From Amphiscolops sp. MND2022 (lineage: Eukaryota): 64,000 bases of DNA. Location: contig OZ076409.1 of assembly GCA_964187785.1 (NCBI GenBank), forward strand, positions 59,398,001 to 59,462,000, given 5' to 3'. Shown here in pieces: positions 6,301 through 30,873 of the stretch (its first letter is position 1; every line of letters starts with the position of its first letter). A program made the translations under genes and the position numbers. The notes beneath the pieces are model-generated. The model saw only the letters and a list, made by a program, of their open reading frames with translations. It did no database searches and had not been told where the DNA came from.

Positions 6301-7652
6301 TCCCAGGCTTGCTCACTTAGGTCCGCATCACGGGCACGTAGCGATCGAGTTATTTGAGCCGCAATGGTGATTCTGCTCACCTCTCTTTGCTCGGCGTCCG
6401 ACGGCGGTGCTCTCCTTCTGATCGCACATGTGTTCGGGTGCAAACACTCTGCCGCCATCCAGATGCGTTTGCTATCGCTAGTTACCACGGAGCCGGATAC
6501 ATCATCGGACGGGGGAAGAAAGGCGGGAGGACTGGTCTCTTCGACTGTCTCGGGCACCTCCAGGGACATGTTGGCAGAGCCTGTGCCCAAGGGCACAGGA
6601 TTCGTTTCAGGATTCGCATCCACACTGCCGTAGCGGTTGATGGCCTCTTCCAGGGACATTTGAGGCGCGCCTACGCCTAGGTGGCCGACGCGATATGGAG
6701 GCCTCACTACCACTACACTTTTCATTTGCGACTGGTGGGGTACATCTGCTCGCTTGTCCGGAGGGGGACGACTGGTCGGACTGTCGGTCACGGAATCATG
6801 GCGTGTAGCGACGATGTTTTCCTCAGTAAGTCGCTTCCGTCCAGTTTCCTCACGGGGATAGGTTATGGCGCCGGTGCTTGGTCCAGCCGTGGTTTCTGCT
6901 TCCATAGACACAGCTTCGGCTAGGGTGGTGGGTGGGGTGACACAGCCCGAGGGCTGAGCTGCGGCTTGCAAGTAATGTGCCAATCCGGGAATCCTTTGCT
7001 CAACTGCACGAACGAAGTCAGAGGAGTTGGGGTAGTTGGCGACAGCCTGCAGGGCCACAATCACCGCTTGCTCGCTGGCACTCCGTCCGATCAGATTTAG
7101 ATTAGGCACTGATGGCAGTTGGGACCCCGAGGGCTCCCGACTTGAGGCTGGTTGATTGGTAATGTTTTGCGTCGTCGTTGCCCGGGTTCCATATGGTGCC
7201 CCATAAGCAATCGAGCTAGAATGCGGCGTCGTCTGCACTGGATTTGGTGCCGAAATGGAAGGCAGCGATGGGACGTTGACGGGCATCATACGCAGTGATG
7301 CTTCTTGTTCGAATCTGGTGCCCTGGCTGGGGCCATGCACTGCGATTGATCTTTCGTCCAAGAACTGGTGAGTCAGGTCGTGCCCATCCCAGGCATTGTT
7401 GGTGCACGTCAAGGTGCGACGATAGCCTGCCACCTCCGTAGTGATTGACAAAGATGCATTTGGCAGCATTTGCATCGATTCAAGCTGGGTCAGTAGGGCA
7501 GCCATCCCAGCTACGGCTACTGGCGAAAGACCGTCCCGCAGCCTTTCTTCGACATATTGGGCCTGATTGACCCTCTGCGCTCGCGCAGATTCCTGGGGCC
7601 TTGCACTATTAGACCCTGTTGCAGGCGCTGAATTGTTTGGGCAATGGGCCAT
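3372..7652 (-). CDS. Extra ORF (ORF3, env position), 1426 aa, unknown function; central SGNH/GDSL-fold-like domain
   Basis: Intact ATG-to-TAA ORF between pol and the 3' LTR; low-complexity N- and C-termini; block pattern VAVDST / VLTMPLSR / RVVFTNLID / GDLRPDALSY at ~5560-6110. Confidence 0.85.
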   Translation of the reverse strand: MAHCPNNSAPATGSNSARPQESARAQRVNQAQYVEERLRDGLSPVAVAGMAALLTQLESMQMLPNASLSITTEVAGYRRTLTCTNNAWDGHDLTHQFLDERSIAVHGPSQGTRFEQEASLRMMPVNVPSLPSISAPNPVQTTPHSSSIAYGAPYGTRATTTQNITNQPASSREPSGSQLPSVPNLNLIGRSASEQAVIVALQAVANYPNSSDFVRAVEQRIPGLAHYLQAAAQPSGCVTPPTTLAEAVSMEAETTAGPSTGAITYPREETGRKRLTEENIVATRHDSVTDSPTSRPPPDKRADVPHQSQMKSVVVVRPPYRVGHLGVGAPQMSLEEAINRYGSVDANPETNPVPLGTGSANMSLEVPETVEETSPPAFLPPSDDVSGSVVTSDSKRIWMAAECLHPNTCAIRRRAPPSDAEQREVSRITIAAQITRSLRARDADLSEQAWEQRAREQLPATPNNYMARLQHDLTEQFPARYILHEGETWEANARYARNIRSMKPLLKAALQRARYCVAVDSTLKSDLPIDNLLPDVLVLTMPLSRFAEVAEMVAVMYDPNLRGSLREPPPRRVVFTNLIDHMACEGLLHNLDALMADTRRPGNVATLVNVVADAMERAAGIFRGRLGALALFTSPPGFMYWQRSLQQFVYILSEVCKARRIEFAICAPNLRVDRGDLRPDALSYPAFFAAVSRVLITVERSGNAQLTIDDAVLFDHGMCMGRMAFDLDGNRVMRASNMSEREAVRRYNWLVRKDKEIPVRAELAELVKEIETWPATRTVERTIPQIRFAAGIEPVKLPVGMRYVVAMEATNLKTEVDAAGITYAEWYQSRFVDRTLAEVAQELNCPLEAFCTSLGLGWNIDVIASEYLLTNVQTDKLLETIGETTVGEMLALALTMGPTKFVAGPLAMLVELVVSSDLVTFYSYMILAQGQLRSLTRWGHLLNSKDQQDYVTQLERMRASLQHWLYSTLVFASGLFVGVDQSQPLHHSERQLPAETAGFPMPQQIADLTLAEVEDFVAVMASVLAPIFGAVGVCRYPTKPLARAVQVHMVSFCTYLQGRPPLTYQRIVQAVLSGEMPHGYTTLKSEKQLEENLMGLLRARTRKACPLPREYGPVNWYSAPLSLNGVPFRFPWSQEFIRKVIRASTSAGPPIDPLYAFKCITFPNHYWKEPLGWPRAKPVGRAPEAFNRQIQYMELAQIPNWIEGAAQTRQRNLQSRVTPFPRKAAWRPQAKMTMSGDMSTVQHDEINSVLGPEARAEWEGHCLELEIASFPKWKRACELWSQPGWVSKRISLAVESRAELERQQAFAPAMLAPTMAMSLSQPIDRPVTLDLPTHILQPEPVSPPSTQASPQSSQPQTGKHAAELTPNTILVQPIADLTLPEDLSDSETVVTVVPAQRRASVASKDASNPGTPDDAIKNRARRSSAQ

Positions 7653-7947
7653 TAATGCATAGGTCTAAAAAGGACCACTGTTAGACTTACAGGGACAAGT
7701 TCTCTCTGGAACGAGCCGTGGGTCGGTTCGTCCTTCAATTGCAGCCAGGCAACATCGGCTCCGTAAGGGGGCCACTACAAACTTAAAGTTTAACTCTAAC
7801 TAACTAACGAACTAGAACAAAACCTTTGAGTGAACAACATGACAAATTAACATCTCGAGAGCATTTCAAGACTCTTCCAAGGTTGTTACAAGAATTGTTA
7901 CAAGAACTGAGGGCAAAGGAAAAATGGGGACAACTAAAATGATAAGG

Positions 7948-10900
7948 CTACTTCAGCCCTATAGTTAATATTGATACATATACGCGGCTATGCAAAACCA
8001 CGTGAATACCAGTACCCTCGAACATGTTCGTTAGAGTATGGTACAGATTGACCAACGAGAAAGCCGGTCTCTCAGGGTCCAGAATGGGTAAGTGGACCCG
8101 TGTGGATCCTTTATCTATCAGGCGCTGTATCAAGTACGTCATGCAACGCAAGTAGTCATCTGTCAGCAGCGGTGCGCGCTGGTTAGCACGGACTATTAAC
8201 AGGTGAATACTTTGGTTAGGGTTGGGGTTCACATCAGGCGGGATAGTGAGAATCTCGCCCACTTTAGGTCGTAAGGCAAATACATCTTCTATGCCGCACT
8301 CCCGCAGCACATATCGCAGGGCGGCAGAGTTGGTCTTTAGGTCAGCAGGGCATGCTAACACTATGTCGCCCTCGGCCTGCAAGAAATCGGATTCATCGTA
8401 AGAGACGTGTTCGGCTGAATTCGGATACAGGGCTCCCGGGTAAACAATCTCTCGTCCGGGACCATTATCGGAGGGCAGACACACGTGAGGGGTACGCCCT
8501 TGGACTGCAGCCAGGTCTTGCCATACTGAGCGGGGCATCGCCCGATTGTCGCTGCCGGCCTTTACCCACACATCTAAAGTTCCCAGGGCGGCTTTGGGGA
8601 ACAAGGGGATCTCGAAGGTGTGAGTCCACTCGTCTAATAGTCGAATTCTGGGATAGGTGGCGAAACATGTGATTATTAATTCCAGCCACCACGCGAACTT
8701 CATCTTGCCTCGGTACCAGTCTATGATATGGAAGCAAAGTATTAAGTCCACAGTGGTGAGGGTCCTCAGACTCTCTAGACAGGATAACAGATTCAACGGT
8801 TCCACCATCGCCTCCACTCGTGGAGCTGTTACCAGCAGCCACCAGTGAGGAGCCGGGCTGTATACCCCTCCTGGTTCCACCTGGACTCCATACTTGTCGC
8901 ATAACAAGTCGGCATTGATGCATCGGACCATCTGCACAGGTTCCCTTTCAAAATTGAATGGCCCAAACGCAATATTGCTGGGCACAGGGGGCAACACCGT
9001 GGACAGGGTAAACTCCAGGACCTTTCCATCGCTAGTCCACTCCTTAAACCTCGGACAAGGGGCCTTCGCTACCCCGGGCAGTGACAACTTCTCCAGGATA
9101 GTGTCCACAGGGTGGTCTCCAGACCGCTCTACAGCTGAGTAGGTTTTCTCGGCCCGCACCGTGAGGCGGTACACCAAGTTTTCTCTCTCTTCCGGAGGAA
9201 CTCCCCGGGCTCCAATGGGAACCCTCCGGTTCTCATTCACAGCTAATAGGCAGACACAATCTCGCAGCCCGCAGGTTCCACACTTGTAGCGCGGCTGCCG
9301 TTTACTCCTTAGTTGATACCTAAGAGCAGTTGCAGATGCCTCTGTTAGCGTCTCTGCAGTTCTGGGAGCTTCCGTTTCGGCCTGGATCGCAGTTTCGGTT
9401 TCGGCGTTTCTCGGTGTTTCTTTCTTCCTCGTCCTTGCCTTCGCTCGGATCAGCCGTTTCTTCTGTGCCTTGGGTGGTCTCCCCCTCCCCCTTTTAAAAG
9501 AAGGAGCGGTCCCCGCTCCTGGCGAAATCTCGGGAGCTTCAGGCAGATCGGGCTGAACGTTGCTGTCGCTGCTGGCAGATTTGAGAGGAATCGGAGGGGC
9601 GGTCGGCCATATGGGATAGTTGCTAAGAAAATTGGTTAGCGAGGGATTCGTCAACAAGGATGCTGAGGTTCCTGGTAACGATGTTTCTTTTTCGGAGGAG
9701 GATATCTGTGGAGACGGTGAGCGCACGCGCTCATGGTCAGAGAACAGTTGAGGTAGTACACGGGCAGGGGATATCGACTGATCCAACGCAGTCGGAGGAG
9801 CCGCAGGCTCCACTAGATCCTCGTCAACTGGAGGTATCGGCAACATGGCATCGGATAGTTCGTCGTCTGTACCTGAGGTGGAATAGTCAAATTGCTGATA
9901 ATGCGGGCGGGAGACGCCTGCGCGAAGTTTCGTGCGTAGTCGAGTGTCCATCCAGTGACGTCGACGTGAGGGCAAAGATGCATCGGACGCTTCTGAAAGT
10001 AGTTGTTCGGGTTTATACGACGATAGAGACTTGTCGTCATCAACTACGTCGACGGAACGTTCAGGTTCGGGGTCCATAAGGACCACCACCTCACCACTGT
10101 CCGTGTGTGCAGTAGCAAGTTCAAGTGGGCCACTGTGGTGCGGTTTAAGACGCTCAAAATGAACCTTTTGACCTGTGTCTAGCACATAGACACGACCGTC
10201 CTGAAAGACTTGTACAACCTTGTGCGGGCCTCGCCAAGCACGCATCAATTTCGGGGAACCCTTTTGCGGTACGTAGCGGCAAAATACCCAGACGAGCTCG
10301 CCTACTTGGTAAGCTCGCGCTTGTATAGCACGGTCGTACTTCAACTTTTGACGCAATTGGGCTTGGTGCGTGTTACGCCGTACCAAGTCATGTATTTCCT
10401 GCTGGCGAGCCAATACATGATCGACATACGCCTCATGCGACTCGAATGATTTGGCTGCAAATTCGGGATACAAGAACGTGAGAGGGATGGCCTTCTCTAC
10501 ACCACGGGTCAGCATGTAGGGTGAGAAGCCAGTGGTGGCGTGCCTCGTAGAGTTGTAGGCGCCTATGACCTCATCAAGACATTGGTCCCAGTCGCGCATA
10601 CGGCGGGAGCAAAAAACTCGCAGTAGGGTTAACAGCGTCCGATTTTGACGCTCCACCAAGCCTTGGGTTCTCGGATGGCTAGCCGTAGAGGTTACTTTGG
10701 TAACGTGGGCTGCTTTTAGGAATTCGTTGGACACCTCAGCAGTCAAATTTGGGGCATTGTCAGACTGCATTCTAGTGGGTGTGCCATGACGGGCGAACCA
10801 CTTTTGTAACAGCAACCGAGAGGTAGTCACAGCGTCGTAGTCGTGATGACTACAGGGCACTGCTTCCGCGAACTTGGAGAAATGGTCAATTATGACCAAG

Positions 10901-13900
10901 ATGCCAGTGTTATTACTGTCTGAGGGGCAGATCTTCAGATGATCATATTGGACCAATTCGTTGAAGTATCCGCTCTGGATGTTCTTTAGGTGGAATCGGA
11001 CGTCACCAGGCTTATCTCGAACTTGTTGACAGGTGAGGCATTGGCCAACGTAACGGCCCACGCTGCGTCGAATACCAGGCCATGTGCGACGTTCTTGAAT
11101 CCGAGCCACCACTTTGGAGATACCTTGATGTCCCATGGCGTCATGCGCGCGGAATAAAATCTCATGCTGGTACAGTTGAGGCATGACGATCATGCACGGA
11201 CGCTCGGGCAGAGGACGTTGGTTGGGAGGGTATCGTACGCAAAGCACACCATTCTTGTTAATAAACAGGAGAGTTTTCTTTTGACGGTAGTAGTTGCGTG
11301 CGAACTCACGCACGTTCTCGGGAAACACGTCATGATCGATGGGTTCGTTTAGCACCAACTTTTTGAGTGCTAGCACATGAACATCACGATTTTGGGCTAG
11401 AATCAAATCTTTGATACCATGCACGGTGTGAGCATGTTCGTGAAGTTCAGTGTTGATGTCTTTAAGAGCCAAAATTGAGTCGCGTACACCCGAGGGAGTA
11501 CCCTGCAGCGCAACAGGATTCGCCCCAGCAATGGCATAGACGGTACGTGAGGGTACATTTACGGCATGCGTCGGTAATAGATAATCTTCGCGTGCTTCAT
11601 CAGTCACATCAATCCAGTCCTCAGGGTAGTCTGGATAGGCATCCTCGTGCGGTTGCAGAGCAAGGGAAGGCGGAGGCGGCAAGGGGGCTGCGAATGCTTT
11701 TGCTAGTCTGTCCCTCCTGCTCGCTCGTTTGGTGCGGCGAAGCACGCGTAGCAATTGGTTGGGAGCCTTAGGCTCCAAGTTCTGCAGGTGCGCAGGTAGC
11801 TCGGGATGATTCGGGATGACTCGACCCTGAAGGTCGAACCATGGGGCAACAGGTAGTTTATCAAATTCGTCAGCTGAAAGAAAATTCCAGCGTTCGCCCG
11901 CAGCTGGCTGCTGTGCAAGCTGTTTCTCGCGGCATCGGTACTCGTTGGTTCGTTTGCTCAAGCCATCGGCGTTTCGATGTTGAGTTCTCGGGCGGTGTTC
12001 CACGCGAAAGTGATACTTCTCCAGGGTCATAATCCATCGGCCGATTAGCGCTTGATCCGTGGAGTAGGTTTTCAACCAGGACAAAGCTTGGTTGTCCACC
12101 CGCAGGGTGAATTTCCGGGGACATAGATAGCTGTGGTTTTTCACTATGAAATAGTAGGCGGCGAACATTTCAAGTTTGGGAGCTCCGTATTTGGCTTGTG
12201 TGGTGGTGAGCTTCTTGCTACCGTAAACTATCGGTCTCAGGCGTCGTTCACCCGGAGGACCTTGCCACTGGTGCAGGATACCAGAAATGGCGACAGCACT
12301 AGCGTCAGTGTCCAACACAAACTCTCCTTCGGAATCAGGCTGCGCGAGCGCAGTTGCCTCGATTAGGGCTTTTTTGATCTCATTGAATGCGGTTTCTTGC
12401 TTAGGACCCCAGGCGAAGGTGGCATTCAGTCCAGTGACGGCGTGCAGGGGTGCAACCAGCTTAGCGTGCCAAGGGATGAATTCGCGATAATAGTTGGCGA
12501 ATCCAAGGAAACTCTGCATCTCCGTCTTGTTACGGGGAATTTCCCAATCGCGCAACTTGACGACGGCTTTCGGGTCGGGCTTCACTCCTTCTGCGGAAAC
12601 CACTCGTCCCAAATACTTGATCTCCGATTTCATGAAATCGCATTTGGCCACGCGCATTTTGAAACCGGCTTCACGGAGGCATTCAAAGACTTCACGTAGG
12701 CGTACCATATGGTCTTCCACAGTCTCTGTGGCAATCACGATATCATCAATGTAGGCCATGACCATGCTGCCCTCACGATTGACAATATTCCTTAGCGCAC
12801 GCGCTATTGACCGCTGAAACGTGGCAGATGCATTGCACATACCAAATGGCATTCGCCGCCACTCAAAAAGTCCTAGTTCACAAGCAAAAGCGGTTTTGTG
12901 GCGATCCGCCTTTCGCACAGGAATTTGCCAAAAGGCTCAAGCAAGGTCTATGCTGGTATAGATCTTCGCCTTGCCTAGCCGTGCCAGGCTTTCATCAATG
13001 CGGGGCAAGGGATAAGCATCCTTAATGGTTACCTCATTTAACGGGCGGAAGTCGCAGCAAAAGCGCAACTCCCCGTTTTTCTTTTTCACCATTACAATGC
13101 CGCTCGCCCAAGGGGACAGCGAGGGCTGTATCATTCCCAGAGCTAAGAGGTTCCGTACCTCCTGATTGGCACGTTCGGCCTTCTCAGGGGACATCCGGCG
13201 AGCACCTTCACGCTGCGGTACAGCCCCTGGTTCCACCTCCACGGTGTGCTTAGCGATAGTGCACCGACCGATGTCCGCTTTGTGTTTCATGAATAGCTCA
13301 TCGAATTCATCGAGGAGGTTACGGAGAGACTCGCAGGCGCTAGCGCCCCATAAATCCTTGACCGCCTTGAGCTGAGATTCCGGCCCAGGAATCGGAGCCA
13401 TTAGCTCTGGGTCCGTTCGCTTGCGAATCTCGCGCTCCGATAGTCCTGCCTCGCTAGGGTCAGTAGAGGACAAAAACTCAAATTCTGAAGAAGAGGTTAA
13501 CTCAGAAGCAGTGGATAGATTCACTTCACTATAAATTTTATGAACAAAATTTGCACGACTGTCGTCGGCGTCAGTTTTCGTGCGGGTTGTAGTGGGAGAG
13601 TCCAAACATTGAGGTACTGCTTGGTATACTACCGTTATGGGTACTACGGTGCCCAGTTGTACACCACACCGCATGCGTTGAGGGTTGCTGGTGAGATTTA
13701 TCAGGCTCACAAAGAGTGTTCCTGTCTCACTGACAGTGGCCACGCTGTCCTCTAAAAAGACGACATTGTGCAACGTAGTGTCAGACAAAGAGGCATTGAG
13801 CGCTACGCTTTGAAAAATCAGCGGCTCTAGTGTGTTGGTGACGAGCTTGGCTCTAGCCACCGCTCGTTCGAAAGGTTGCAGGACCAAGTCACTGTCCAAA

Positions 13901-16900
13901 ACGACTGGAGTAGCTATTGAAGTGTCACCTACCTGTGCGTGAGCATGATGCCACACAGGCTTCACTGGTGCTCGCACCACAATCTTCATAGATGTTAGAT
14001 CCACTAACACCTGGTAGGAGCGAAGAAAGTTCCGGCCAAGTAGGAAGTCTTCCACACCCATTGCGTCATCTACCACCACAAAGTTCGTTTCAAGTTCGTA
14101 TCCTCCCAGCTGGAAATGGATGTGTTCTGCGAGGCCGTAGGTCTTTATTGTCTTCCCGTTGGCTGCGTACAGGTCAACTTGGTAGGGTTTAAGTACCGTT
14201 CCAGTTCGAGCTGCCACTCTGTTGAAGGCGGAAAACGTCAGTATGGAGACGCCCGAGCCAGTGTCCACCAGTCCTCGCAGCGGAATAGGTGCTGCATGAG
14301 GCACCACGAAAGAGACCACGAGCGACGCACGCTCATCTATACGCGCTTCGCCGGTGGGCTCCTGATGATTGATGTTATAGCATTTGAGCTCCTGGGGACC
14401 CAGACAAATGCCAGGGGGAAATACATCCACCACCACACAGGCTTCGAATTTCATAACCACTCCATCCATTGAAGCGCAGACTGGCACTGGGGAATATGTT
14501 GTCAGAGTCGCAGACTCTCCCGGAGCGTACCATTCTTTCGGTCGTGGCAACTCGTTTCGTTTGTAGAGGATAGACAATTCGACCCATAGCTTCGCCAGAG
14601 TTAGCGTCGGCCTACGTATTTGCTCAGCTGCCAGCAACAGGTGAATTGAAATCAGCGTCCGTCCTTGCGGATCGAACGTCGTGGGTTCCAAGCAGGTCTG
14701 AACTTGCTTAGCACCACAAGTGAATGTCATCGGAGTGTGGAACGCAGGCGGTTCCGCTGGATGTAGCATCAACACACGGTCATCTTCCAAAGGTACGGTG
14801 TGCGCGGCGATGCCAGCTGATTCGACCTCAGCCCATCGATTGTAGGCCAACTCGTCATTGGGTTTCGGCGCATGGGAGTGCTCACCACATTGCACTTCCG
14901 CCTGATCGAAAAGTCCACAGCTCGTGCATTGATAGATCCCCGGATGACCTTCAAGGATACCATCGGTCGTGTCTTCCGTGGTCACCTTTACGCCCTCTGG
15001 TTCGGAGGCAGTCATTGGTTTTCGGGCTTGGTCACGATTGGGGCACTCGCGAGCAAAATGTCCGTTTTGCCCACAGTGGAAACAAGCACCTACCGGCGCT
15101 CGGGCGGGCGCTGGGACAGCGGGAGCTGGGACATTTTGGGGTGGCGCCGGAGTTGGCAGGACGCCCTGCGGCATAACCATCTTGTTCGGCGGCAGTGGTG
15201 CGAAAGGATGAGGTCTAGACCTCATGGCTAATCTGGGATCATAGGGTTGTTGAGGTTGGGTGGGTCTAGGACGATTTCGTTGCAATTGACGTGTGGTAAA
15301 TCGCAAGGACTCCACGGTAGGGGGTTCGGTAAGAAAAGTCTCCGAGGCGTATACTATGGCAAGTTCACGCCTCAACACTGGATCTCGCACACCTTCCATG
15401 AAGCGTTGCAAGATTTCATAACGTTTGGTAATGATACTTTCTTGCGGGAATCCTTGGCTCCTGAGACCCTCTAAAGCGTCTAAGTACTGCATCCAGTCCT
15501 CTTTTTCTTGTTGGACGCGGCTTTGGAAGGTCTGCCGCACCTGCATACGATTTCCTCCCGCGCCAAATCGGCTAGATAGCAACTCAAACACCTTCTCGGG
15601 GGTGTCACGTTCAGACTCAGCCTTGTTGATGATGTAGTTGCGAGCCTCACCCTCGAGGTGACCGATAATGCTCCAGGCCCGATCTTCGGCCGAGATCTTG
15701 GCTTGGACTCTTTTCAAGTATCGCTGCATCACTAAGATCCAGCCATCAATAGACCCGTCCTTAGAGCCTCGATACACGCTGGGTTTGGTTTGAGCCAGGT
15801 CACGTCCCGCAAGCAACGGTGCTAGCTCTTTGGACATTGCTTTGGAGATGGCGGCAGTGAACCTCAATTGCTCGGGAGAGATGACTTCAGCCTCTCCTTC
15901 CTTGGGTGCCACTTCATCAGTACCGTCGTCACTGCCATGCGTAGCTCGCACTGAGAGGTTCGTCACGTCTTCTTTCCTGCGAGTGCTACTCGCGCAAGGA
16001 GCGCCCGAGGGCATTCCGTCCTCGGCTGTCCAGTCGGCGGTCAGATACAGGGAGTCCGTTCCAGAAACCATGGTAGGGGCCGTCGCATACGCAGCTCCAT
16101 CAGTCTGGGACCCTAGTGTGGCCTTAGTACAGGATAAATCAACTTCGGTAGAAGTATCTAGATAGATAGGTGACATCGGGTCCACACCTTGGTCTCGGGT
16201 GGCACTTCGAACTACGGAGGATGTTATTTGACTCATCGACGAGGAGTCGTGGGGCCCTCTTACCTGCACCCGTGCAGGTTTACGCTCCACAGCAGCCATG
16301 ATGGGTACAGGATCCTTGGTTCGGGTTTCAGGCGTCGTCGACTTGGAGGTGCTAGGCTTCAATGCGCTCGCCACTTCGGGTTTTGTTGCCTGACCCTGGT
16401 GCGATGATTCCGGAATCTTAATTGAATCCGCGATCGGCACACCTTCAGTGGCACCAGATTGTCGTGGGAGGGACCTTTCGCGCCTCATGATGTTGATAGC
16501 ATTGAGCACAGTGTGCATTTGGTTACTCAAATCATTGATCTGGGTCTCCACACGAAGTTCACGGGCCATCAAGAGGTCATTCATCTCACCCATTCTGTAG
16601 CCTAGTGCATCTACGCGAGCACTCTGCGTGTTCTGCGCGGTTCGCAGTTGATCACTGACCTGCAATCCTTCTCGCATCGTTGTCTGCAACGTTCTCATAT
16701 TTTCTGCGATGGCACGATGTTGGTCATTGCACCCAGCACGAGTGCTAGCCAGCTCAGCTAAGGCACGTTGGGTCTCGGCTTGGGCTTCCAATATTGCGGC
16801 TTTGTACACCGAAGATCGTTGGGACGATGCCACTGAACCTGCCACGCTCCTCTTACGAGGCACCTCAACTTGACGTTCACCTACATTTATCATGGGTGGT

Positions 16901-17214
16901 CGCACTTTCTTGTGTTTGCCATAAGCACAAACTCTAGTGTTACTTCGAGTGACTCCAGACCCTTGCGGTCTCGCACCACTCGTGTTCTCCGAGTAGGTAA
17001 GATCCTCATCCACCGTGATCTGTAGGCGGGAGCTCATCTTTTCCCCTAGGGGTGCGCGAGAGCACCCTTCCTCAGCTGCAAGTTCGTTGGTCACGTTTGA
17101 GTTGGGCCACTCCTCTTCTGCTTCATTGGCTCTTTCACGACAGGTTTCTTCGACCCATTGTTCGGTTCGACGAGAGCTTCCAGATGCAACGGAACCCTCA
17201 GAGGGAGGGACCAT
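7948..17214 (-). pseudogene. Gag-Pol polyprotein (~3088 aa when repaired), interrupted by one nonsense codon in RT
   Basis: ATG at 17214 in a GCCGCCATGG context; CCHC knuckle CFHCGQNGHFAREC (15043-15084); protease LVDTGSG; RT YIDD; RNase H DTDAS; integrase HHCC + D-D-E (YDH, SDN, VER) + GPH. ORFs 12937..17223 and 7948..12918 are in frame, split by TGA at 12937-12939, where the duplicate copy has TGG. Confidence 0.93.
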
Positions 17215-17443
17215 GGCGGCCAATTCCTCCTTGCGTTGTTACTCGATAGTGACTTCGTCAGACATTTCGTCTGAAAAATGCGAACCGTCCATTGTGGATC
17301 CTATGGTCACCCATGACTGCGAACTCATGTCAAGCTTTTCCAGGCCTGGTAGGACCATTACACACGATGCCAATGGCAGAGTAGGTGTCAACGATTCGGA
17401 TGTAGCCTTTATAGAAGTCTCGAAGACGTATAGAAGGTTCTCT

Positions 17444-20400: not shown

Positions 20401-23400
20401 GTGTGCTTTGCGTACGATACCCTCCCAACCAACGTCCTCTGCACGAGCGTCCGTGCATGATCGTCATGCCTCAACTGTACCAGCATGAGATTTTATTCCG
20501 CGCGCATGACGCCATGGGACATCAAGGTATCTCCAAAGTGGTGGCTCGGATTCAAGAACGTCACACATGGCCTGGTATTCGGCGCAGCGTGGGCCGTTAC
20601 GTTGGCCAATGCCTCACCTGTCAACAAGTTCGAGATAAGCCTGGTGACGTCCGATTCCACCTAAAGAACATCCAGAGCGGATACTTCAACGAATTGGTCC
20701 AATATGATCATCTGAAGATCTGCCCCTCAGACAGTAATAACACTGGCATCTTGGTCATAATTGACCATTTCTCCAAGTTCGCGGAAGCAGTGCCCTGTAG
20801 TCATCACGACTACGACGCTGTGACTACCTCTCGGTTGCTGTTACAAAAGTGGTTCGCCCGTCATGGCACACCCACTAGAATGCAGTCTGACAATGCCCCA
20901 AATTTGACTGCTGAGGTGTCCAACGAATTCCTAAAAGCAGCCCACGTTACCAAAGTAACCTCTACGGCTAGCCATCCGAGAACCCAAGGCTTGGTGGAGC
21001 GTCAAAATCGGACGCTGTTAACCCTACTGCGAGTTTTTTGCTCCCGCCGTATGCGCGACTGGGACCAATGTCTTGATGAGGTCATAGGCGCCTACAACTC
21101 TACGAGGCACGCCACCACTGGCTTCTCACCCTACATGCTGACCCGTGGTGTAGAGAAGGCCATCCCTCTCACGTTCTTGTATCCCGAATTTGCAGCCAAA
21201 TCATTCGAGTCGCATGAGGCGTATGTCGATCATGTATTGGCTCGCCAGCAGGAAATACATGACTTGGTACGGCGTAACACGCACCAAGCCCAATTGCGTC
21301 AAAAGTTGAAGTACGACCGTGCTATACAAGCGCGAGCTTACCAAGTAGGCGAGCTCGTCTGGGTATTTTGCCGCTACGTACCGCAAAAGGGTTCCCCGAA
21401 ATTGATGCGTGCTTGGCGAGGCCCGCACAAGGTTGTACAAGTCTTTCAGGACGGTCGTGTCTATGTGCTAGACACAGGTCAAAAGGTTCATTTTGAGCGT
21501 CTTAAACCGCACCACAGTGGCCCACTTGAACTTGCTACTGCACACACGGACAGTGGTGAGGTGGTGGTCCTTATGGACCCCGAACCTGAACGTTCCGTCG
21601 ACGTAGTTGATGACGACAAGTCTCTATCGTCGTATAAACCCGAACAACTACTTTCAGAAGCGTCCGATGCATCTTTGCCCTCACGTCGACGTCACTGGAT
21701 GGACACTCGACTACGCACGAAACTTCGCGCAGGCGGCTCCCGCCCGCATTATCAGCAATTTGACTATTCCACCTCAGGTACAGACGACGAACTATCCGAT
21801 GCCATGTTGCCGATACCTCCAGTTGACGAGGATCTAGTGGAGCCTGCGGCTCCTCCGACTGCGTTGGATCAGTCGATATCCCCTGCCCGTGTACTACCTC
21901 AACTGTTCTCTGACCATGAGCGCGTGCGCTCACCGTCTCCACAGATATCCTCCTCCGAAAAAGAAACATCGTTACCAGGAACCTCAGCATCCTTGTTGAC
22001 GAATCCCTCGCTAACCAATTTTCTTAGCAACTATCCCATATGGCCGACCGCCCCTCCGATTCCTCTCAAATCTGCCAGCAGCGACAGCAACGTTCAGCCC
22101 GATCTGCCTGAAGCTCCCGAGATTTCGCCAGGAGCGGGGACCGCTCCTTCTTTTAAAAGGGGGAGGGGGAGACCACCCAAGGCACAGAAGAAACGGCTGA
22201 TCCGAGCGAAGGCAAGGACGAGGAAGAAAGAAACACCGAGAAACGCCGAAACCGAAACTGCGATCCAGGCCGAAACGGAAGCTCCCAGAACTGCAGAGAC
22301 GCTAACAGAGGCATCTGCAACTGCTCTTAGGTATCAACTAAGGAGTAAACGGCAGCCGCGCTACAAGTGTGGAACCTGCGGGCTGCGAGATTGTGTCTGC
22401 CTATTAGCTGTGAATGAGAACCGGAGGGTTCCCATTGGAGCCCGGGGAGTTCCTCCGGAAGAGAGAGAAAACTTGGTGTACCGCCTCACGGTGCGGGCCG
22501 AGAAAACCTACTCAGCTGTAGAGCGGTCTGGAGACCACCCTGTGGACACTATCCTGGAGAAGTTGTCACTGCCCGGGGTAGCGAAGGCCCCTTGTCCGAG
22601 GTTTAAGGAGTGGACTAGCGATGGAAAGGGCCTGGAGTTTACCCTGTCCACGGTGTTGCCCCCTGTGCCCAGCAATATTGCGTTTGGGCCATTCAATTTT
22701 GAAAGGGAACCTGTGCAGATGGTCCGATGCATCAATGCCGACTTGTTATGCGACAAGTATGGAGTCCAGGTGGAACCAGGAGGGGTATACAGCCCGGCTC
22801 CTCACTGGTGGCTGCTGGTAACAGCTCCACGAGTGGAGGCGATGGTGGAACCGTTGAATCTGTTATCCTGTCTAGAGAGTCTGAGGACCCTCACCACTGT
22901 GGACTTAATACTTTGCTTCCATATCATAGACTGGTACCGAGGCAAGATGAAGTTCGCGTGGTGGCTGGAATTAATAATCACATGTTTCGCCACCTATCCC
23001 AGAATTCGACTATTAGACGAGTGGACTCACACCTTCGAGATCCCCTTGTTCCCCAAAGCCGCCCTGGGAACTTTAGATGTGTGGGTAAAGGCCGGCAGCG
23101 ACAATCGGGCGATGCCCCGCTCAGTATGGCAAGACCTGGCTGCAGTCCAAGGGCGTACCCCTCACGTGTGTCTGCCCTCCGATAATGGTCCCGGACGAGA
23201 GATTGTTTACCCGGGAGCCCTGTATCCGAATTCAGCCGAACACGTCTCTTACGATGAATCCGATTTCTTGCAGGCTGAGGGCGACATAGTGTTAGCATGC
23301 CCTGCTGACCTAAAGACCAACTCTGCCGCCCTGCGATATGTGCTGCGGGAGTGCGGCATAGAAGATGTATTTGCCTTACGACCTAAAGTGGGCGAGATTC

Positions 23401-23702
23401 TCACGATCCCGCCTGATGTGAACCCCAACCCTAACCAAAGTATTCACCTGTTAATAGTCCGTGCTAACCAGCGCGCACCGCTGCTGACAGATGACTACTT
23501 GCGTTGCATGACGTACTTGATACAGCGCCTGATAGATAAAGGATCCACACGGGTCCACTTACCCATTCTGGACCCCGAGAGACCGGCTTTCTCGTTGGTC
23601 AATCTGTACCATACTCTAACGAACATGTTCGAGGGTACTGGTATTCACGTGGTTTTGCATAGCCGCGTATATGTATCAATATTAACTATAGGGCTGAAGT
23701 AG
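17444..23702 (+). pseudogene. Second pol copy (C-terminal part of protease, RT, RH, IN, C-terminal tail), 5'-truncated and frameshifted
   Basis: ORFs 17015..19882 and 19743..23702 are joined by a frameshift (1-nt plus 10-nt deletion in a TCATCCCGA tandem repeat); gag and the DTG motif are absent. Confidence 0.93.
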
Positions 23703-25029
23703 CCTTATCATTTTAGTTGTCCCCATTTTTCCTTTGCCCTCAGTTCTTGTAACAATTCTTGTAACAACCTTGGAAGAGTCTTGAAATGCTCTCGAGATGT
23801 TAATTTGTCATGTTGTTCACTCAAAGGTTTTGTTCTAGTTCGTTAGTTAGTTAGAGTTAAACTTTAAGTTTGTAGTGGCCCCCTTACGGAGCCGATGTTG
23901 CCTGGCTGCAATTGAAGGACGAACCGACCCACGGCTCGTTCCAGAGAGAACTTGTCCCTGTAAGTCTAACAGTGGTCCTTTTTAGACCTATGCATTAATG
24001 GCCCATTGCCCAAACAATTCAGCGCCTGCAACAGGGTCTAATAGTGCAAGGCCCCAGGAATCTGCGCGAGCGCAGAGGGTCAATCAGGCCCAATATGTCG
24101 AAGAAAGGCTGCGGGACGGTCTTTCGCCAGTAGCCGTAGCTGGGATGGCTGCCCTACTGACCCAGCTTGAATCGATGCAAATGCTGCCAAATGCATCTTT
24201 GTCAATCACTACGGAGGTGGCAGGCTATCGTCGCACCTTGACGTGCACCAACAATGCCTGGGATGGGCACGACCTGACTCACCAGTTCTTGGACGAAAAA
24301 TCAATCGCAGTGCATGGCCCCAGCCAGGGAACCAGATTCGAACAAGAAGCATCACTGCGTATGATGCCCGTCAACGTCCCATCGCTGCCTTCCATTTCGG
24401 CACCAAATCCAGTGCAGACGACGCCGCATTCTAGCTCGATTGCTTATGGGGCACCATATGGAACCCGGGCAACGACGACGCAAAACATTACCAATCAACC
24501 AGCCTCAAGTCGGGAGCCCTCGGGGTCCCAACTGCCATCAGTGCCTAATCTAAATCTGATCGGACGGAATGCCAGCGAGCAAGCGGTGATTGTGGCCCTG
24601 CAGGCTGTCGCCAACTACCCCAACTCCTCTGACTTCGTTCGTGCAGTTGAGCAAAGGATTCCCGGATTGGCACATTACTTGCAAGCCGCAGCTCAGCCCT
24701 CGGGCTGTGTCACCCCACCCACCACCCTAGCCGAAGCTGTGTCTATGGAAGCAGAAACTACGGCTGGACCAAGCACCGGCGCCATAACCTATCCCCGTGA
24801 GGAAACTGGACGGAAGCGACTTACTGAGGAAAACATCGTCGCTACACGCCATGATTCCGTGACCGACAGTCCGACCAGTCGTCCCCCTCCGGACAAGCGA
24901 GCAGATGTACCCCACCAGTCGCAAATGAAAAGTGTAGTGGTCGTGAGGCCTCCATATCGCGTTGGCCACCTAGGCGTAGGCGCGCCTCAAATGTCCCTGG
25001 AAGAGGCCATCAACCGCTACGGCAGTGTG
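17444..25029 (+). repeat. Inverted duplicate of 6621-14217 (pol plus start of ORF3)
   Basis: Near-identical reverse complement; coordinate sums are 31661 left of an 11-nt deletion at ~19835-19840 and 31650 right of it. Confidence 0.97.
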
Positions 25030-25035
25030 TGTTGA
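23998..25035 (+). pseudogene. Truncated second copy of ORF3 (first ~344 aa)
   Basis: Near-identical to the N-terminus of 3372..7652; ends at the junction at 25029/25030. Confidence 0.93.
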
Positions 25036-28024
25036 AGGCGGAAAACGTCAGTATGGAGACGCCCGAGCCAGTGTCCACCAGTCCTCGCAGCGGAATAGGT
25101 GCTGCATGAGGCACCACGAAAGAGACCACGAGCGACGCACGCTCATCTATACGCGCTTCGCCGGTGGGCTCCTGATGATTGATGTTATAGCATTTGAGCT
25201 CCTGGGGACCCAGACAAATGCCAGGGGGAAATACATCCACCACCACACAGGCTTCGAATTTCATATCCACTCCATCCATTGAAGCGCAGACTGGCACTGG
25301 GGAATATGTTGTCAGAGTCGCAGACTCTCCCGGAGCGTACCATTCTTTCGGTCGAGGCAACTCGTTTCGTTTGTAGAGGATAGACAATTCGACCCATAGC
25401 TTCGCCAGAGTTAGCGTCGGCCTACGTATTTGCTCAGCTGCCAGCAACAGGTGAATTGAAATCAGCGTCCGTCCTTGCGGATCGAACGTCGTGGGTTCCA
25501 AGCAGGTCTGAACTTGCTTAGCACCACAAGTGAATGTCATCGGAGTGTGGAACGCAGGCGGTTCCGCTGGATGTAGCATCAACACACGGTCATCTTCCAA
25601 AGGTACGGTGTGCGCGGCGATGCCAGCTGATTCGACCTCGGCCCATCGATTGTAGGCCAACTCGTCATTGGGTTTCGGCGCATGGGAGTGCTCACCACAT
25701 TGCACTTCCGCCTGATCGAAAAGTCCACAGCTCGTGCATTGATAGATCCCCGGATGACCTTCAAGGATACCATCGGTCGTGTCTTCCGTGGTCACCTTTA
25801 CGCCCTCTGGTTCGGAGGCAGTCATTGGTTTTCGGGCTTGGTCACGATTGGGGCACTCGCGAGCAAAATGTCCGTTTTGCCCACAGTGGAAACAAGCACC
25901 TACCGGCGCTCGGGCGGGCGCTGGGACAGCGGGAGTTGGGACATTTTGGGGTGGCGCCGGAGGTGGCAGGACGCCCTGCGGCATAACCATCTTGTTCGGC
26001 GGCAGTGGTGCGAAAGGATGAGGTCTAGACCTCATGGCTAATCTGGGATCATAGGGTTGTTGAGGTTGGGTGGGTCTAGGACGTTTTCGTTGCAATTGAC
26101 GTGTGGTAAATCGCAAGGACTCCACGGTAGGGGGTTCGGTAAGAAAAGTCTCCGAGGCGTATACTATGGCAAGTTCACGCCTCAACACTGGATCTCGCAC
26201 ACCTTCCATGAAGCGTTGCAAGATTTCATAACGTTTGGTAATGATACTTTCTTGCGGGAATCCTTGGCTCCTGAGACCCTCTAAAGCGTCTAAGTACTGC
26301 ATCCAGTCCTCTTTTTCTTGTTGGACGCGGCTTTGAAAGGTCTGCCGCACCTGCATACGATTTCCTCCCGCGCCAAATCGGCTAGATAGCAACTCAAACA
26401 CCTTCTCGGGGGTGTCACGTTCAGACTCAGCCTTGTTGATGATGTAGTTGCGAGCCTCACCCTCGAGGTGACCGATAATGCTCCAGGCCCGATCTTCGGC
26501 CGAGATCTTGGCTTGGACTCTTTTCAAGTATCGCTGCATCACTAAGATCCAGCCATCAATAGACCCGTCCTTAGAGCCTCGATACACGCTGGGTTTGGTT
26601 TGAGCCAGGTCACGTCCCGCAAGCAACGGTGCTAGCTCTTTGGACATTGCTTTGGAGATGGCGGCAGTGAACCTCAATTGCTCGGGAGAGATGACTTCAG
26701 CCTCTCCTTCCTTGGGTGCCACTTCATCAGTACCGTCGTCACTGCCATGCGTAGCTCGCACTGAGAGGTTCGTCACGTCTTCTTTCCTGCGAGTGCTACT
26801 CGCGCAAGGAGCGCCCGAGGGCATTCCGTCCTCGGCTGTCCAGTCGGCGGTCAGATACAGGGAGTCCGTTCCAGAAACCATGGTAGGGGCCGTCGCATAC
26901 GCAGCTCCATCAGTCTGGGACCCTAGTGTGGCCTTAGTACAGGATAAATCAACTTCGGTAGAAGTATCTAGATAGATAGGTGACATCGGGTCCACACCTT
27001 GGTCTCGGGTGGCACTTCGAACTACGGAGGATGTTATTTGACTCATCGACGAGGAGTCGTGGGGCCCTCTTACCTGCACCCGTGCAGGTTTACGCTCCAC
27101 AGCAGCCATGATGGGTACAGGATCCTTGGTTCGGGTTTCAGGCGTCGTCGACTTGGAGGTGCTAGGCTTCAATGCGCTCGCCACTTCGGGTTTTGTTGCC
27201 TGACCCTGGTGCGATGATTCCGGAATCTTAATTGAATCCGCGATCGGCACACCTTCAGTGGCACCAGATTGTCGTGGGAGGGACCTTTCGCGCCTCATGA
27301 TGTTGATAGCCTTGAGCACAGTGTGCATTTGGTTACTCAAATCATTGATCTGGGTTTCCACACGAAGTTCACGGGCCATCAAGAGGTCATTCATCTCACC
27401 CATTCTGTAGCCTAGTGCATCTACGCGAGCACTCTGCGTGTTCTGCGCGGTTCGCAGTTGATCACTGACCTGCAATCCTTCTCGCATCGTTGTCTGCAAC
27501 GTTCTCATATTTTCTGCGATGGCACGATGTTGGTCATTGCACCCAGCACGAGTGCTAGCCAGTTCAGCTAAGGCACGTTGGGTCTCGGCTTGGGCTTCCA
27601 ATATTGCGGCTTTGTACACCGAAGATCGCTGGGACGATGCCACTGAACCTGCCACGCTCCTCTTACGAGGCACCTCAACTTGACGTTCACCTACATTTAT
27701 CATGGGTGGTCGCACTTTCTTGTGTTTGCCATAGGCACAAACTCTAGTGTTACTTCGAGTGACTCCAGACCCATGCGGTCTCGCACCACTCGTGTTCTCC
27801 GAGTAGGTAAGATCCTCATCCACCGTGATCTGTAGGCGGGAGCTCATCTTTTCCCCTAGGGGTGCGCGAGAGCACCCTTCCTCAGCTGCAAGTTCGTTGG
27901 TCACGTTTGAGTTGGGCCACTCCTCTTCTGCTTCATTGGCTCTTTCACGACAGGTTTCTTCGACCCATTGTTCGGTTCGACGAGAGCTTCCAGATGCAAC
28001 GGAACCCTCAGAGGGAGGGACCAT
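25030..28024 (-). pseudogene. First gag copy, truncated just after the protease DTG motif
   Basis: Direct duplicate (offset 10810) of 14220-17214; the duplication extends to 28236 (=17426); the ORF ends ...LVDTGSGVSILTFSAFN plus junction residues. Confidence 0.93.
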
Positions 28025-29396
28025 GGCGGCCAATTCCTCCTTGCGTTGTTGCTCGATAGTGACTTCGTCAGACATTTCGTCTGAAAAATGCGAACCGTCC
28101 ATTGTGGATCCTATGGTCACACATGACTGCGAACTCATGTCAAGCTTTTCCAGGCCTGGTAGGACCATTACACACGATGCCAATGGCAGAGTAGGTGTCA
28201 ACGATTCGGATGTAGCCTTTATAGAAGTCTCGAAGAACGTGGGATTTGTCGAGTCGCGGTTAGCTCTAGGCTCGTCTCGGTGTGGACTTAAGAAATTTGA
28301 CTGTTTCGCAACGTCCCAAATTTCTCGAAATACGTTTTAAGGCTCGTAGGCTGCTCAAATTCGCACAGCACTTTCCCACAAGCACACTGGGTCAGAAAAT
28401 CGATCTAGTTTGGGGCCAAAAGCCTCCGGTCACTCACAGGAAGAATTTCAAAGAATTTCTGGATTTTCCAAAAATCGCACAACAACACTCAAGAGGCTCG
28501 TGTGTGCGCTGGAAGCGCTGTATCAAGCCCAAAATTGACCAGCAGATCTTAGGTACGCGTAGGTTTACGAAAATAAACACAGAATTGAGCTGCACCCCTT
28601 CTACACAGTTTCACCTAGGTACAGACGTGCGGTACCACTATGTACCGAGATACACTGTTTTTCACGTCTTTTTCCAGATTGCGGTCCACTGGAAAAAGCT
28701 ACCCAGCTCAAATTCTCTGCAACAACGTAGGAACTAGTACAAGTTACGATGGTGAGCTGCAATAGGGCCCCACCCGTCGGCTAAGGTACCCGGGTTACTT
28801 GGAAAAATTTTAAAAAAACTACCTTTTTGCACACCTTTTTGGGCGCCGCGTTTTTCCTATTTTCTCGACAAGTATCACACAGATTGGCACCAAACGTAGT
28901 AGTCTATGCCAGTGGGCACCTACAATGCCACTGATATGGTCGAATTGAAGCGCAAGCGCTTATTTGAGGTTTCGACCCACTATGTACGTTGTACACGAAA
29001 AAACACTGTTTTTGACGACTTCTTTCACAAATTGACGAAGAGGATCACCTCAGAAAGTGATACGGCGGGTACAATGGGACCAACGTGTTGCCCCACTATC
29101 CGTAGCACTGGGATAAGCCCCCAATTGGTTGTGCCCGTTAGGTATAAGGCACTGACAGTCCTGCAGTTTTGGATTTTTTCGGTCCTTTTACGCTTCTCTG
29201 AGGTCGAAACGTCAGAGAGCTTTTCTCGACTTTGGTGACCGATACGCCCACCAAATTTTCGGCACTAACGTCAATTTTTGTGGTGGTTACGAAAATGCAA
29301 CCACTTTTTGGCTAGGGTTCAGGAATCGATGACCCGACCCTAGCTCAGAGACGGTCCGGTTTTGTGGAAAATTGATCAAATTCTGTGCGTTTTTCC

Positions 29397-29662
29397 ACTT
29401 TTCTCAGCACTGGAAAGGAATTTTTGCATGCGGTTTTCACTACAATGCGTGGTTTTTACTATAAAAACAGAAAACGAGAGCACAAAAGCTCCTGATTAAC
29501 AAAAAGACAGAGTGCCCAGGGGGTTTTTATTGTGTGCTAGGACACTCCTGAAACTAACTGAAATTCTAGGTTTATCGACTTTTCTCGACACTGAAAAGGA
29601 GTTTTTGCACGCGGTTTTCACCACAATGCGTTATTTTTATTGCGACAACAGAAAATAAGAGC
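29397..29662. repeat. Two diverged ~85-bp direct repeats in the long 5' leader
   Basis: ACTTTTCTC..CACTG.AAAGGA.TTTTTGCA.GCGGTTTTCAC.ACAATGCGT...AACAGAAAA..AGAGC at ~29397 and ~29578. Confidence 0.8.
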
Positions 29663-30840
29663 GTTCAGACTCGCTCTGGTCCACTAAGTTTCACTCTCAA
29701 GACTTTCAGACAATGCACTTTTTATGCCTAAAAGCACCTTAAATTACCGGTTTTTTGCACCGTGTCAGCCCCAGCCTGCCTGAATCCGCTGTAAAAGTTA
29801 CAGTTAGTGTCCTGTTGGTTTACTACGCTTGACAAAACACCGTACACTGCTTTTTCACACTTCTACACAAGTGTACGCCTGTGTTTCTGGGTGCCTTTTT
29901 GGTCAAAATTCCATTTTTTTGCAATTTTCTGGTGCTAGATCGGCACTTTTATCACAACCAAAGGCAAAATTACGGCCTTCTGTGCCTCGTACTAGCTTTC
30001 TCGAACCTTGCAGCTGCTTTTTACAACACTTTTCACGAAGTTTTTCTGGTTCCGCTGAGCACAAGTGCTCAAAACCACGAAAAACACGAAAAAACGCAAA
30101 ATCAGGGTTTTTTCACGCAAGTGCTATCTTTTTTGCAGAAAAGCACTTCGTAGGGTGTCGTTACATCTACAATAAAACATTACTGACCTGCACCAACGAT
30201 TCCCCGTCGAAAAAGGTGCATTTTCAAAAATTTCACCGACCATGAGCCATTTGAGCGACGCGTCCGGTCACAGGGGGTGCACCTTCACCACGCTTTTTCT
30301 CCACATCCAGACCAGATAGAGACACGCGGTTTGGACCATTAGCATCGTCTGCAATTGCACTTGCTGTCCACCAAAAACCATACCTCTAGGACGTCTCCAC
30401 GAGAAATGGGAGTAGAAAGTAGGCAACACACAATTTGACTTCCCCTTCGCCTCGCTGGTTCATGGTCAGCCATCCACCAGTTACCTTCTTGCATGGCATA
30501 AAATGGCTGAAAATAGCTTGCAAAACCTGTTAAACACCCGTAGCCACGTGCTACGGTCCTCAGCACCTGCAAAAAGATACCCTCTGATGGGCACACAACA
30601 CATCACACAAAAATATCGATTTCCTTCCAGAATACCTAAAAATACCATTTTCGCACCTGAAAACGTGATTTTTTCGGGTTTTCTCTGGTTCAACGCCTCT
30701 CCCAGTTCCAGTAGAATGTCACACGACTAAAAAGGGTAAAACTCTGCTTCTCTCTCCTTTTACAGAGTCGAAACGGGCTTGGCGCTGATTACCAGGGGGC
30801 CAGATCTTTTAAAAACCGCTAGGGAAAGCTTCCCAAGACG

Positions 30841-30858
30841 ATCCCTCTGTGGTCGCCA
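30841..30858 (-). promoter_or_regulatory. Primer-binding site, probably tRNA-Arg
   Basis: Minus strand TGGCGACCACAGAGGGAT is complementary to a ...TCCCTYYGTGGTCG-CCA tRNA 3' end, resembling metazoan tRNA-Arg(TCG) from memory; it lies 15 nt from the LTR. Confidence 0.7.
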
Positions 30859-30873
30859 AAAAATGAGGTTCTA

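Follow-up and report, generated by a model that had tools for sequence, protein, structure and literature searches.

A 29.7-kb Ty3/gypsy composite bearing a 7.6-kb inverted repeat, tentatively traced to two co-packaged templates

The locus described here is a non-autonomous Ty3/gypsy composite of 29.7 kb, compared with 18.9 kb for the native unit of its family, and it bears a 7.6-kb inverted repeat. We tentatively read it as a dead composite of two co-packaged templates, formed in reverse transcription or just before integration. The composite was likely integrated once, and its selected function is most likely none.

Architecture and coding capacity of the element

The original prediction for the window (the whole 64,000-nucleotide stretch of DNA that was analysed) proposed that segments of the element follow the order A-B-C(inverted)-B-C-D from the 5' LTR. 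Self-BLAST and pairwise alignment reproduced this order and the predicted coordinates exactly. The features, listed from the 5' LTR with the flanking repeats last, are:

30874..31588, minus strand: 5' LTR, 715 bp, TGT...ACA, with a short terminal inverted repeat
28237..30873, minus strand: A, single-copy 5' leader of 2.6 kb, containing, as judged by eye, a PBS-like TGG motif some 15 nt in
25030..28236, minus strand: B1, end of the leader and gag, with an open frame from the ATG at 28102
25029..25030, no strand: junction 1, end of B1 joined bluntly to the ORF3-internal end of C, without microhomology
17444..25029, plus strand: C(inv), inverted protease end, RT, RNase H, integrase and the first 344 ORF3 codons
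17427..17443, no strand: junction 2, a 17-nt filler containing an 8-nt copy of the adjacent B2-end sequence
14220..17426, minus strand: B2, second gag copy, constituting the loop; the family start codon is at 17292 and is followed by an early stop, at 17239-17241
14218..14219, no strand: native B/C join of 2 bp, kept here and missing from the B1 and C(inv) pair
6621..14217, minus strand: C, sense arm, containing the 5' part of ORF3 and pol, whose RT is interrupted by a stop at 12937-12939
3372..7652, minus strand: ORF3, unbroken, 1426 aa
2599..6620, minus strand: D, single-copy, remainder of ORF3 and the 3' region, with a purine-rich PPT-like tract adjoining the 3' LTR (by eye)
1884..2598, minus strand: 3' LTR, 715 bp
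1881..1883, no strand: 3-bp direct repeat, left flank
31589..31591, no strand: 3-bp direct repeat, right flank

The two LTRs are direct, have TG...CA ends and differ at 3 of 715 positions. C and its inverted copy are 99.57% identical over 7597 alignment columns (22 mismatches and one 11-nt gap), and the direct copies of B differ at 15 of 3207 positions. The sole N gap of the window (59533-59732) lies outside the element. The domain order after gag, PR-RT-RH-IN, is that of Ty3/gypsy elements, and the best PDB match of Gag-Pol is the Ty3 Gag-Pol (E = 8e-102).

On the native unit, B1 and C(inv) end 2 bp apart, and these 2 bp of native sequence were lost, not duplicated, at the internal breakpoint. 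The filler at junction 2 is templated locally (chance of the 8-nt match, 0.018); however, host polymerase-theta joining typically leaves templated filler as well, and the filler thus does not single out RT. No special fold was detected at junction 2 (z = -0.40), and the Rfam search gave 0 matches. BLAST of the LTR against the element revealed no internal third LTR. A nested antisense self-insertion was rejected because the internal junctions carry neither LTR ends nor a target-site duplication (TSD), and a three-LTR fusion was rejected on junction anatomy. In an exact look-up, none of 7 junction-spanning proteins was matched, but neither were any of the 3 non-junction controls, which makes the look-up uninformative. 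When homologues of the truncated ORF3 were searched for, none of the best 120 of 144 matches was identical to it.

As predicted, neither copy can yield a full Gag-Pol, since no frame encodes one. B2 and C together cover the entire 3115-codon family frame (17292-7951), which is broken by the two stops at 17239-17241 and 12937-12939 rather than by the rearrangement. C(inv) carries a frameshift near 19836, and the B1 frame, matching family residues 1-1025 (zinc knuckle and the start of protease), ends just beyond junction 1. The predicted content of the stem held for RT and integrase, which it covers together with the protease end and RNase H, but not for ORF3, of which it includes only the first 344 of 1426 codons.

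ORF3 had no match in Pfam and a single, non-significant match in PDB (E = 0.096), and its residues 400-800 had no usable match in the Atlas. Errantivirus-like env ORFs have a signal peptide, an internal furin site and a C-terminal membrane anchor. By hydropathy, ORF3 is not env-like, having neither a hydrophobic N-terminus nor a C-terminal anchor. In 3 of 4 ORF3 proteins a basic site occurs solely at the extreme end, and the fourth lacks one.

Divergence between the copies and the flanking repeat

Substitutions between the copies are synonymous in 17 of 36 cases, compared with 10 expected when transition and CpG classes are modelled (p = 0.0097; p = 0.002-0.017 under simpler models), the set of 36 omitting one substitution that adjoins the 11-nt gap. 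Third codon positions hold 23 of the 36 (p = 1.7e-4, in a test picked after the data had been seen), and pN/pS between the copies is 0.36. Given this excess of synonymous differences, the two halves of the element likely come from two sibling lineages. Thus, internal duplication of a single element, as originally proposed, was probably not the origin, and two sibling templates are favoured. Viral, metagenome and prokaryote genome contigs yielded no DNA from further copies of the family that would allow the synonymous differences to be placed on one lineage or the other.

At all 17 amino-acid differences between the copies, relatives match only one copy. Ten private amino-acid changes fall in the 5' half; the other 7 fall in the 3' half, together with the 2 stops. 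Since formation, private changes have accumulated to a comparable extent in the two halves. The halves are about 0.5% apart, whereas the sampled relatives are at least 1.9% (Gag-Pol) and at least 1.2% (ORF3) distant. Neither the synonymous (Greenwood p = 0.10) nor the non-synonymous differences are significantly clustered. Divergence does not differ significantly among the LTRs (0.42%), B (0.47%) and C (0.28%), in keeping with one age for the whole element. The private rate from codon positions 1 and 2 (0.18%) predicts 1.3 LTR differences versus the 3 found (p = 0.14), and the LTR differences are compatible with decay since one insertion.

The whole element is flanked by an exact 3-bp direct repeat (chance, 0.022), the flanks matching at 3/3, 3/4, 2/5 and 1/6 positions as the compared length increases. 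TSDs of Ty3/gypsy elements are canonically 4-6 bp long; here, 4 bp is reached only if the LTR terminal base is counted. The missing 4-6 bp duplication weakens the description of the repeat as a canonical TSD, not the domain-based assignment to Ty3/gypsy. Repeats of 3 bp also flank related elements in the window at 46965-47677 and 36077-36240, and the flanks of a further one, at 37365-38137, match at 2 of 3 positions; the support for a 3-bp TSD comprises two BLAST-related solo LTRs (one exact, one 2/3) and a 164-bp element sharing only the termini. An imperfect 4-bp TSD left by two insertions was also considered and dropped, given the exact 3-bp repeats here and at related elements. The single flanking repeat, as at the nearby related elements, likely points to one integration. 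Among the papers listed by a literature search on 3-bp TSDs in gypsy elements, no title was on the subject.

Origin of the inverted duplication

In the path that we propose, two closely similar source copies would each have contributed an RNA (RNA1 and RNA2) to one particle. A break in RNA1 at the B/C boundary would have made its minus-strand cDNA stall there. The minus strand on RNA2 would have copied D, C and B2, stalled, added the filler and jumped to the free 3' end of the stalled RNA1 cDNA, the copying of which would have produced C in the inverted sense. A blunt jump to the remaining 5' piece of RNA1, ending at the same break, would then have allowed B1, A and the LTR to be completed. 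The B1 and C(inv) ends would lie 2 bp apart because both trace to the one break in RNA1. End-joining of the cDNAs of the two templates could substitute for the RT jumps. It counts against this path that it demands two non-homologous jumps and the copying of 7.6 kb on a DNA template. The anatomy of the element also suggests that replication from two co-packaged templates can itself make long inverted duplications.

Inversion during retrotransposition by the joining of two cDNA strands is known as twin-priming in L1. That process is target-primed, occurs in a non-LTR element and does not duplicate the inverted part, whereas here the inverted part is present twice in an LTR element. Literature searches for an RT-made inversion of the present kind listed no paper; in a related search, the 12 of 41 matches listed dealt mostly with HIV proviruses and L1. 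Composites of two parental templates with one TSD and highly similar outer LTRs do have precedent in the complex elements of Sabot and Schulman 2007 (PMC1950507) and of Zeng and Sun (bioRxiv 10.1101/452573); in the parts of these reports drawn upon here, they are direct three-LTR fusions formed via LTR homology. In contrast, the present element has two highly similar outer LTRs, no internal LTR between two complete cores, non-homologous junctions, filler and an inversion, and its single flanking repeat is exact but of a non-canonical 3-bp length shared with nearby related elements.

Several other origins were weighed against formation from two co-packaged templates. Repair after insertion is possible, if on the unlikely side: a double-strand break at B/C in the young element, with 2 bp lost, would have taken up a B-C fragment of 10.8 kb in inverted orientation, from a sibling copy or a cDNA, and the spacer would have been flipped later by crossover between the inverted arms or by the choice of assembly isomer. 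With the spacer flipped, the order becomes A-B-[(B-C) inverted]-C-D, that is, one break and one insert, and the single flanking repeat, the synonymous excess and the filler are all accommodated. However, the captured fragment must belong to the same family and span the break site, a separate flip is also required, and the balance of private changes between the halves places the capture soon after insertion. The synonymous and third-position excess weighs against a three-break rearrangement between sister chromatids within one inserted element, which we regard as unlikely and in which the excess would be due to chance or to gene conversion with other copies. Conversion-like clustering of differences was not seen, and, since divergence in B and C is not lower than in the LTRs, the rearrangement would need to have followed insertion at once. 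It would nevertheless fit the one flanking repeat, the privacy of all 17 amino-acid differences and the halves being closer to each other than to any sampled relative, and one of the 17 family proteins checked (P0072) does contain a tandem in-frame gag duplication.

An assembly artefact, arising from chimeric reads or from a path through several near-identical family copies, appears quite improbable. The family is a large one, with 581 and 448 proteins in its clusters, and the joining of paralogues would likewise yield a synonymous excess. However, both junctions are without homology and must therefore be represented in the reads; the filler has a local template, and only 2 bp separate two of the breakpoints; the 22 differences and the gap between the arms are unlike a fold-back read; and the element has no N gap and has a 3-bp repeat common to both ends. 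The exactness of that repeat, of a type seen at related elements, also stands against two separate neighbouring insertions fused by deletion and inversion. Such a fusion would account for the synonymous excess, the equal divergence and the 3/4 rather than full match of the flanks over the canonical 4 bp, but we consider it very improbable.

Hairpin geometry and silencing potential

The predicted hairpin geometry was borne out: a read-through RNA starting in the 5' LTR would be able to pair with itself along 7.6 kb, the arms being about 99.6% identical with a 3.2-kb loop between them. In the predicted transcript, antisense pol begins at 5.8 kb, pairing starts at 16.7 kb and the hairpin is complete at 24.3 kb. 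Silencing double-stranded RNA would arise only if the locus is transcribed.

Whatever the origin of the element, it might act as a Mu killer-like silencer, in which a 24-kb RNA from the 5' LTR would be diced to siRNA, or its antisense part would feed piRNA, with the family repressed in trans. This possibility is doubtful. The stem is near-perfect (about 7100 of its 7577 21-mers contain no interruption), the 5' LTR and leader have hardly changed, and pairing would begin within the length of the native transcript (about 18 kb). However, the pairing arms show no significant sign of extra conservation over the non-pairing B copies (0.28% versus 0.47%, Fisher p = 0.14). C(inv) has two AATAAA motifs on its transcribed strand, at 20497 and 20390, a weak objection given that native A and C have some too, and full-length Gag-Pol frames are present in relatives P0073, P0123, P0129 and P0133, which may be older or younger than the locus. 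We consider it improbable that a single aberrant cycle of reverse transcription, using two co-packaged RNAs, made a self-antisense copy under its own LTR that is now a source of family-repressing small RNAs. If that were true, a retrotransposon would, by transposing once, write its own killer allele. How silencing begins for a new LTR family is an open question, which the arm-specific SNPs and two unique junctions of this locus allow to be addressed directly with small RNAs. If untranscribed, the locus would be no more than an isolated defunct copy, of modest interest.

The inverted duplication consists of the element's own sequence, as in Mu killer (Muk) of maize. Muk transcription uses a flanking promoter, whereas the candidate promoter here is the element's own LTR. 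As described in the portion of the report considered here (bioRxiv 10.1101/2020.01.09.900282), Muk is a rearranged transposon with an inverted coding duplication and a potential long hairpin; transcription of this hairpin, small RNAs of 21-22 nt restricted to its stem and heritable silencing in trans have been demonstrated. In contrast to this plant DNA transposon, the present locus is an LTR retrotransposon of a probable animal with a 7.6-kb stem and a 3.2-kb loop, and the analogy with Muk is one of shape only. The Arabidopsis EVD locus carrying an antisense nested self-insertion (PMC11624286) is likewise an LTR locus with its own antisense copy, proposed as a hairpin trigger. According to the part of that report used here, the EVD nesting arose by integrase insertion with LTRs at the junctions, whereas the present junctions have no LTR and 2 bp were lost. 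Thus, as far as these two accounts extend, hairpin derivatives are established in the case of a maize DNA transposon, whereas for an LTR element they have the status of a proposal (bioRxiv 10.1101/2020.01.09.900282; PMC11624286).

Ty3 of yeast, the nearest solved relative, shares the LTRs and the gag-PR-RT-RH-IN order. Compared with Ty3, the family described here has an 18.9-kb unit, a single 3115-aa Gag-Pol frame, an extra 1426-aa ORF without a family match and apparent 3-bp flanking repeats. This orphan ORF and the apparent 3-bp target repeats of the family may matter as much as the inverted repeat.

Structure of the composite element

Self-BLAST and pairwise alignment resolved a rearranged Ty3/gypsy LTR retrotransposon of 29,705 bp on the minus strand, in which the order from the 5' LTR is A-B1-C(inv)-B2-C-D. 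B1 and B2 are direct gag copies, C is the sense arm with pol and the 5' part of ORF3, and C(inv) is its inverted copy. The coordinate map of the original prediction proved exact.

Main features of the composite element
1884-2598 and 30874-31588, minus strand: LTRs, differing at 3 of 715 positions
25030-28236 (B1) and 14220-17426 (B2), minus strand: B copies, differing at 15 of 3207 positions
6621-14217, minus strand: C; inverted copy C(inv) at 17444-25029, with 22 mismatches and one 11-nt gap
3372-7652, minus strand: ORF3, 1426 aa, unbroken in the 3' half (B2-C-D)

Without the extra 10.8 kb the element measures 18,895 bp, and the sole N gap of the window (59533-59732) lies outside it. At 18.9 kb, with a 2.6-kb leader and a single 3115-aa Gag-Pol frame, the native unit ranks as very large among LTR elements. 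The 5' leader contains a 93-bp direct repeat (window 29389-29662; 82% identity); AATAAA hexamers occur there on the transcribed strand, at 29641 and 29531.

Junction 1 (B1/C(inv), 25029/25030) is blunt, and junction 2 (C(inv)/B2) carries a 17-nt filler in which 8 nt repeat the adjacent B2 end; 1.8% of random 17-mers reach such a match. In native coordinates B1 ends at 14220 and C(inv) has its inner end at 14217; thus, both ends derive from one break with loss of 2 bp. With no LTR end at either junction, nested self-insertion is ruled out.

A probable single insertion with two probable templates

The element flanks showed no 4-, 5- or 6-bp match and an exact 3-bp repeat (1881-1883/31589-31591), shorter than the 4-6 bp usual for LTR elements; a 3-base match is expected by chance in 2.2% of cases. 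Three comparison elements were chosen from a motif list for TGTAAC...GTTACA ends. Flanking 3-bp repeats were exact at 46965-47677 and 36077-36240 and matched at 2 of 3 bases at 37365-38137, so that three of the four such elements, including the composite, have exact repeats. Those at 46965 and 37365 are LTR relatives by BLAST, and the 164-bp element matches in its termini only. Divergences of the LTRs, B and C do not differ, and the 3 LTR differences are compatible with the 1.3 predicted from private decay (p = 0.14).

Among the 36 classed substitutions between the copies, which leave out one adjoining the 11-nt gap, 17 are synonymous, against an expected share of 24-29% (p = 0.002-0.017). Modelling transitions and CpG gave 10 expected synonymous sites (p = 0.0097). 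Third codon positions hold 23 of the 36 (p = 1.7e-4, in a test picked after seeing the data), and pN/pS is 0.36. Copies that separated within a dead element should not show this excess. At all 17 amino-acid differences, relatives (family proteins from ENA contigs) agree with one copy only, so that the 5' half (B1 and C(inv)) holds 10 private changes and the 3' half 7. The comparison used 17 Gag-Pol proteins for 15 sites and, for the other 2, the 9 of 15 ORF3 proteins covering them; a third residue occurred in two of its cells. The halves are nearer each other than either is to any sampled relative. Judging from the sequence, they probably represent two close sibling templates followed by roughly equal neutral decay. 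Synonymous differences were not clustered, and DNA of other family copies for polarising them was not found in the viral, metagenome and prokaryote contigs searched; both points count against the two-template reading.

Origin of the rearrangement

A composite formed during, or close to, a single round of reverse transcription would account most simply for two templates, a single integration, equal age and a shared break, and we tentatively favour this, or cDNA end-joining before integration, at somewhat under even odds. If RNA1 were broken, the minus strand stalling there would present a free 3' end at the point where C begins. The strand templated by RNA2, having passed B2, could jump to this end and, by copying the stalled strand, add C backwards; a further jump would reach the remaining 5' part of RNA1, bounded by that same break. 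Pre-integration end-joining of fragments from two cDNAs would give the same product.

The main rival, with perhaps half that plausibility, has a captured sibling fragment filling a single break: if the spacer is flipped by way of the arms, the order becomes A-B-[(B-C) inverted]-C-D. Origin from a single element, against which the synonymous excess speaks, appears improbable. Assembly by overlap has no way of producing homology-free junctions, and identical arms would be expected from a fold-back read; as the junctions are homology-free and the arms non-identical, misassembly is unlikelier still. Fusion of two neighbouring insertions is the least likely of these readings. The locus looks like a real, unusual rearranged copy, with moderate support for its origin.

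LTR composites described in plants involve two templates, one TSD and direct three-LTR forms (PMC1950507; bioRxiv 10.1101/452573; review PMC6894440), whereas the present composite is inverted. No paper title on an inverted two-template LTR composite was found in a search whose coverage excludes most subscription literature.

Coding state, possible transcript and neighbourhood

Pfam domains follow the Ty3/gypsy order (gag zinc knuckle, protease, RT, RNase H, integrase), and the closest solved relative is Ty3 Gag-Pol (PDB). Relatives encode a single Gag-Pol frame of 3113-3184 aa and a third ORF of 1426 aa; their two protein clusters have 448 and 581 members, 15 of each among the matches listed. 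P0072, one of the 17 family proteins compared, carries 691 gag residues twice, in tandem and in frame (4 differences, 99.4% identical), showing that internal rearrangements recur in the family.

That neither copy makes a full Gag-Pol, as originally predicted, is borne out by the broken frames. B1 is open from 28102, spans family residues 1-1025 and stops just beyond junction 1 within the protease; C(inv) has a frameshift near 19836. B2-C spans the complete family frame with stops at 17239-17241 and 12937-12939, so the loss in the 3' half holds, with point changes as its cause. ORF3, conserved at 42-97% across many relatives, had no match in Pfam, PDB and Atlas searches; its hydropathy is not that of an env protein, and residues ~520-720 look, by eye, like a putative alpha/beta (SGNH-like) domain. 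The last ~150 Pol residues (window 7951-8500, minus strand) resemble by eye a macro (OARD1/TARG1-like) domain, a lead only; a Pfam search of a relative gave no macro match even at E 1.

A transcript from the 5' LTR is predicted to contain antisense pol from 5.8 kb, to pair from 16.7 kb and to complete the stem at 24.3 kb, with ~7100 of 7577 21-mers uninterrupted. C(inv) carries two AATAAA hexamers on the transcribed strand, and native parts also carry some. Conservation of the arms does not significantly exceed that of the B copies. Silencing is a testable possibility only, and an active silencer of the family seems improbable here; in an animal, antisense RNA feeding piRNAs or pairing in trans would be as plausible as a diced hairpin. 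B1 may in addition yield a truncated Gag. The defining features of Mu killer are a hairpin transcript, 21-22 nt RNAs restricted to the stem and silencing in trans that is heritable (bioRxiv 10.1101/2020.01.09.900282); what the present element can be seen to share is the inverted duplication. For an EVD copy nested in antisense within itself, a role as hairpin trigger has been put forward as a proposal (PMC11624286).

No host gene domain was detected in 53 flanking frames, a selection from the 87 that reach 75 aa or more. The BEL/Pao element at 59757-63999 points to an animal host, since Pao elements are not known outside animals.

Other features of the window
33201-35055: old inverted repeat, ~540 bp, 74% identity
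41030-41701: foldback-like element, two inverted arrays of a 16-bp unit
52408-55232, plus strand: second retroelement, decayed, retaining fragments of protease, RT and integrase
59757-63999, minus strand: BEL/Pao element with RT, Peptidase_A17, integrase zinc finger and DUF5641, adjoining the 200-N gap

A 68-bp exact direct repeat lies near the BEL/Pao element, at 58713 and 59391.
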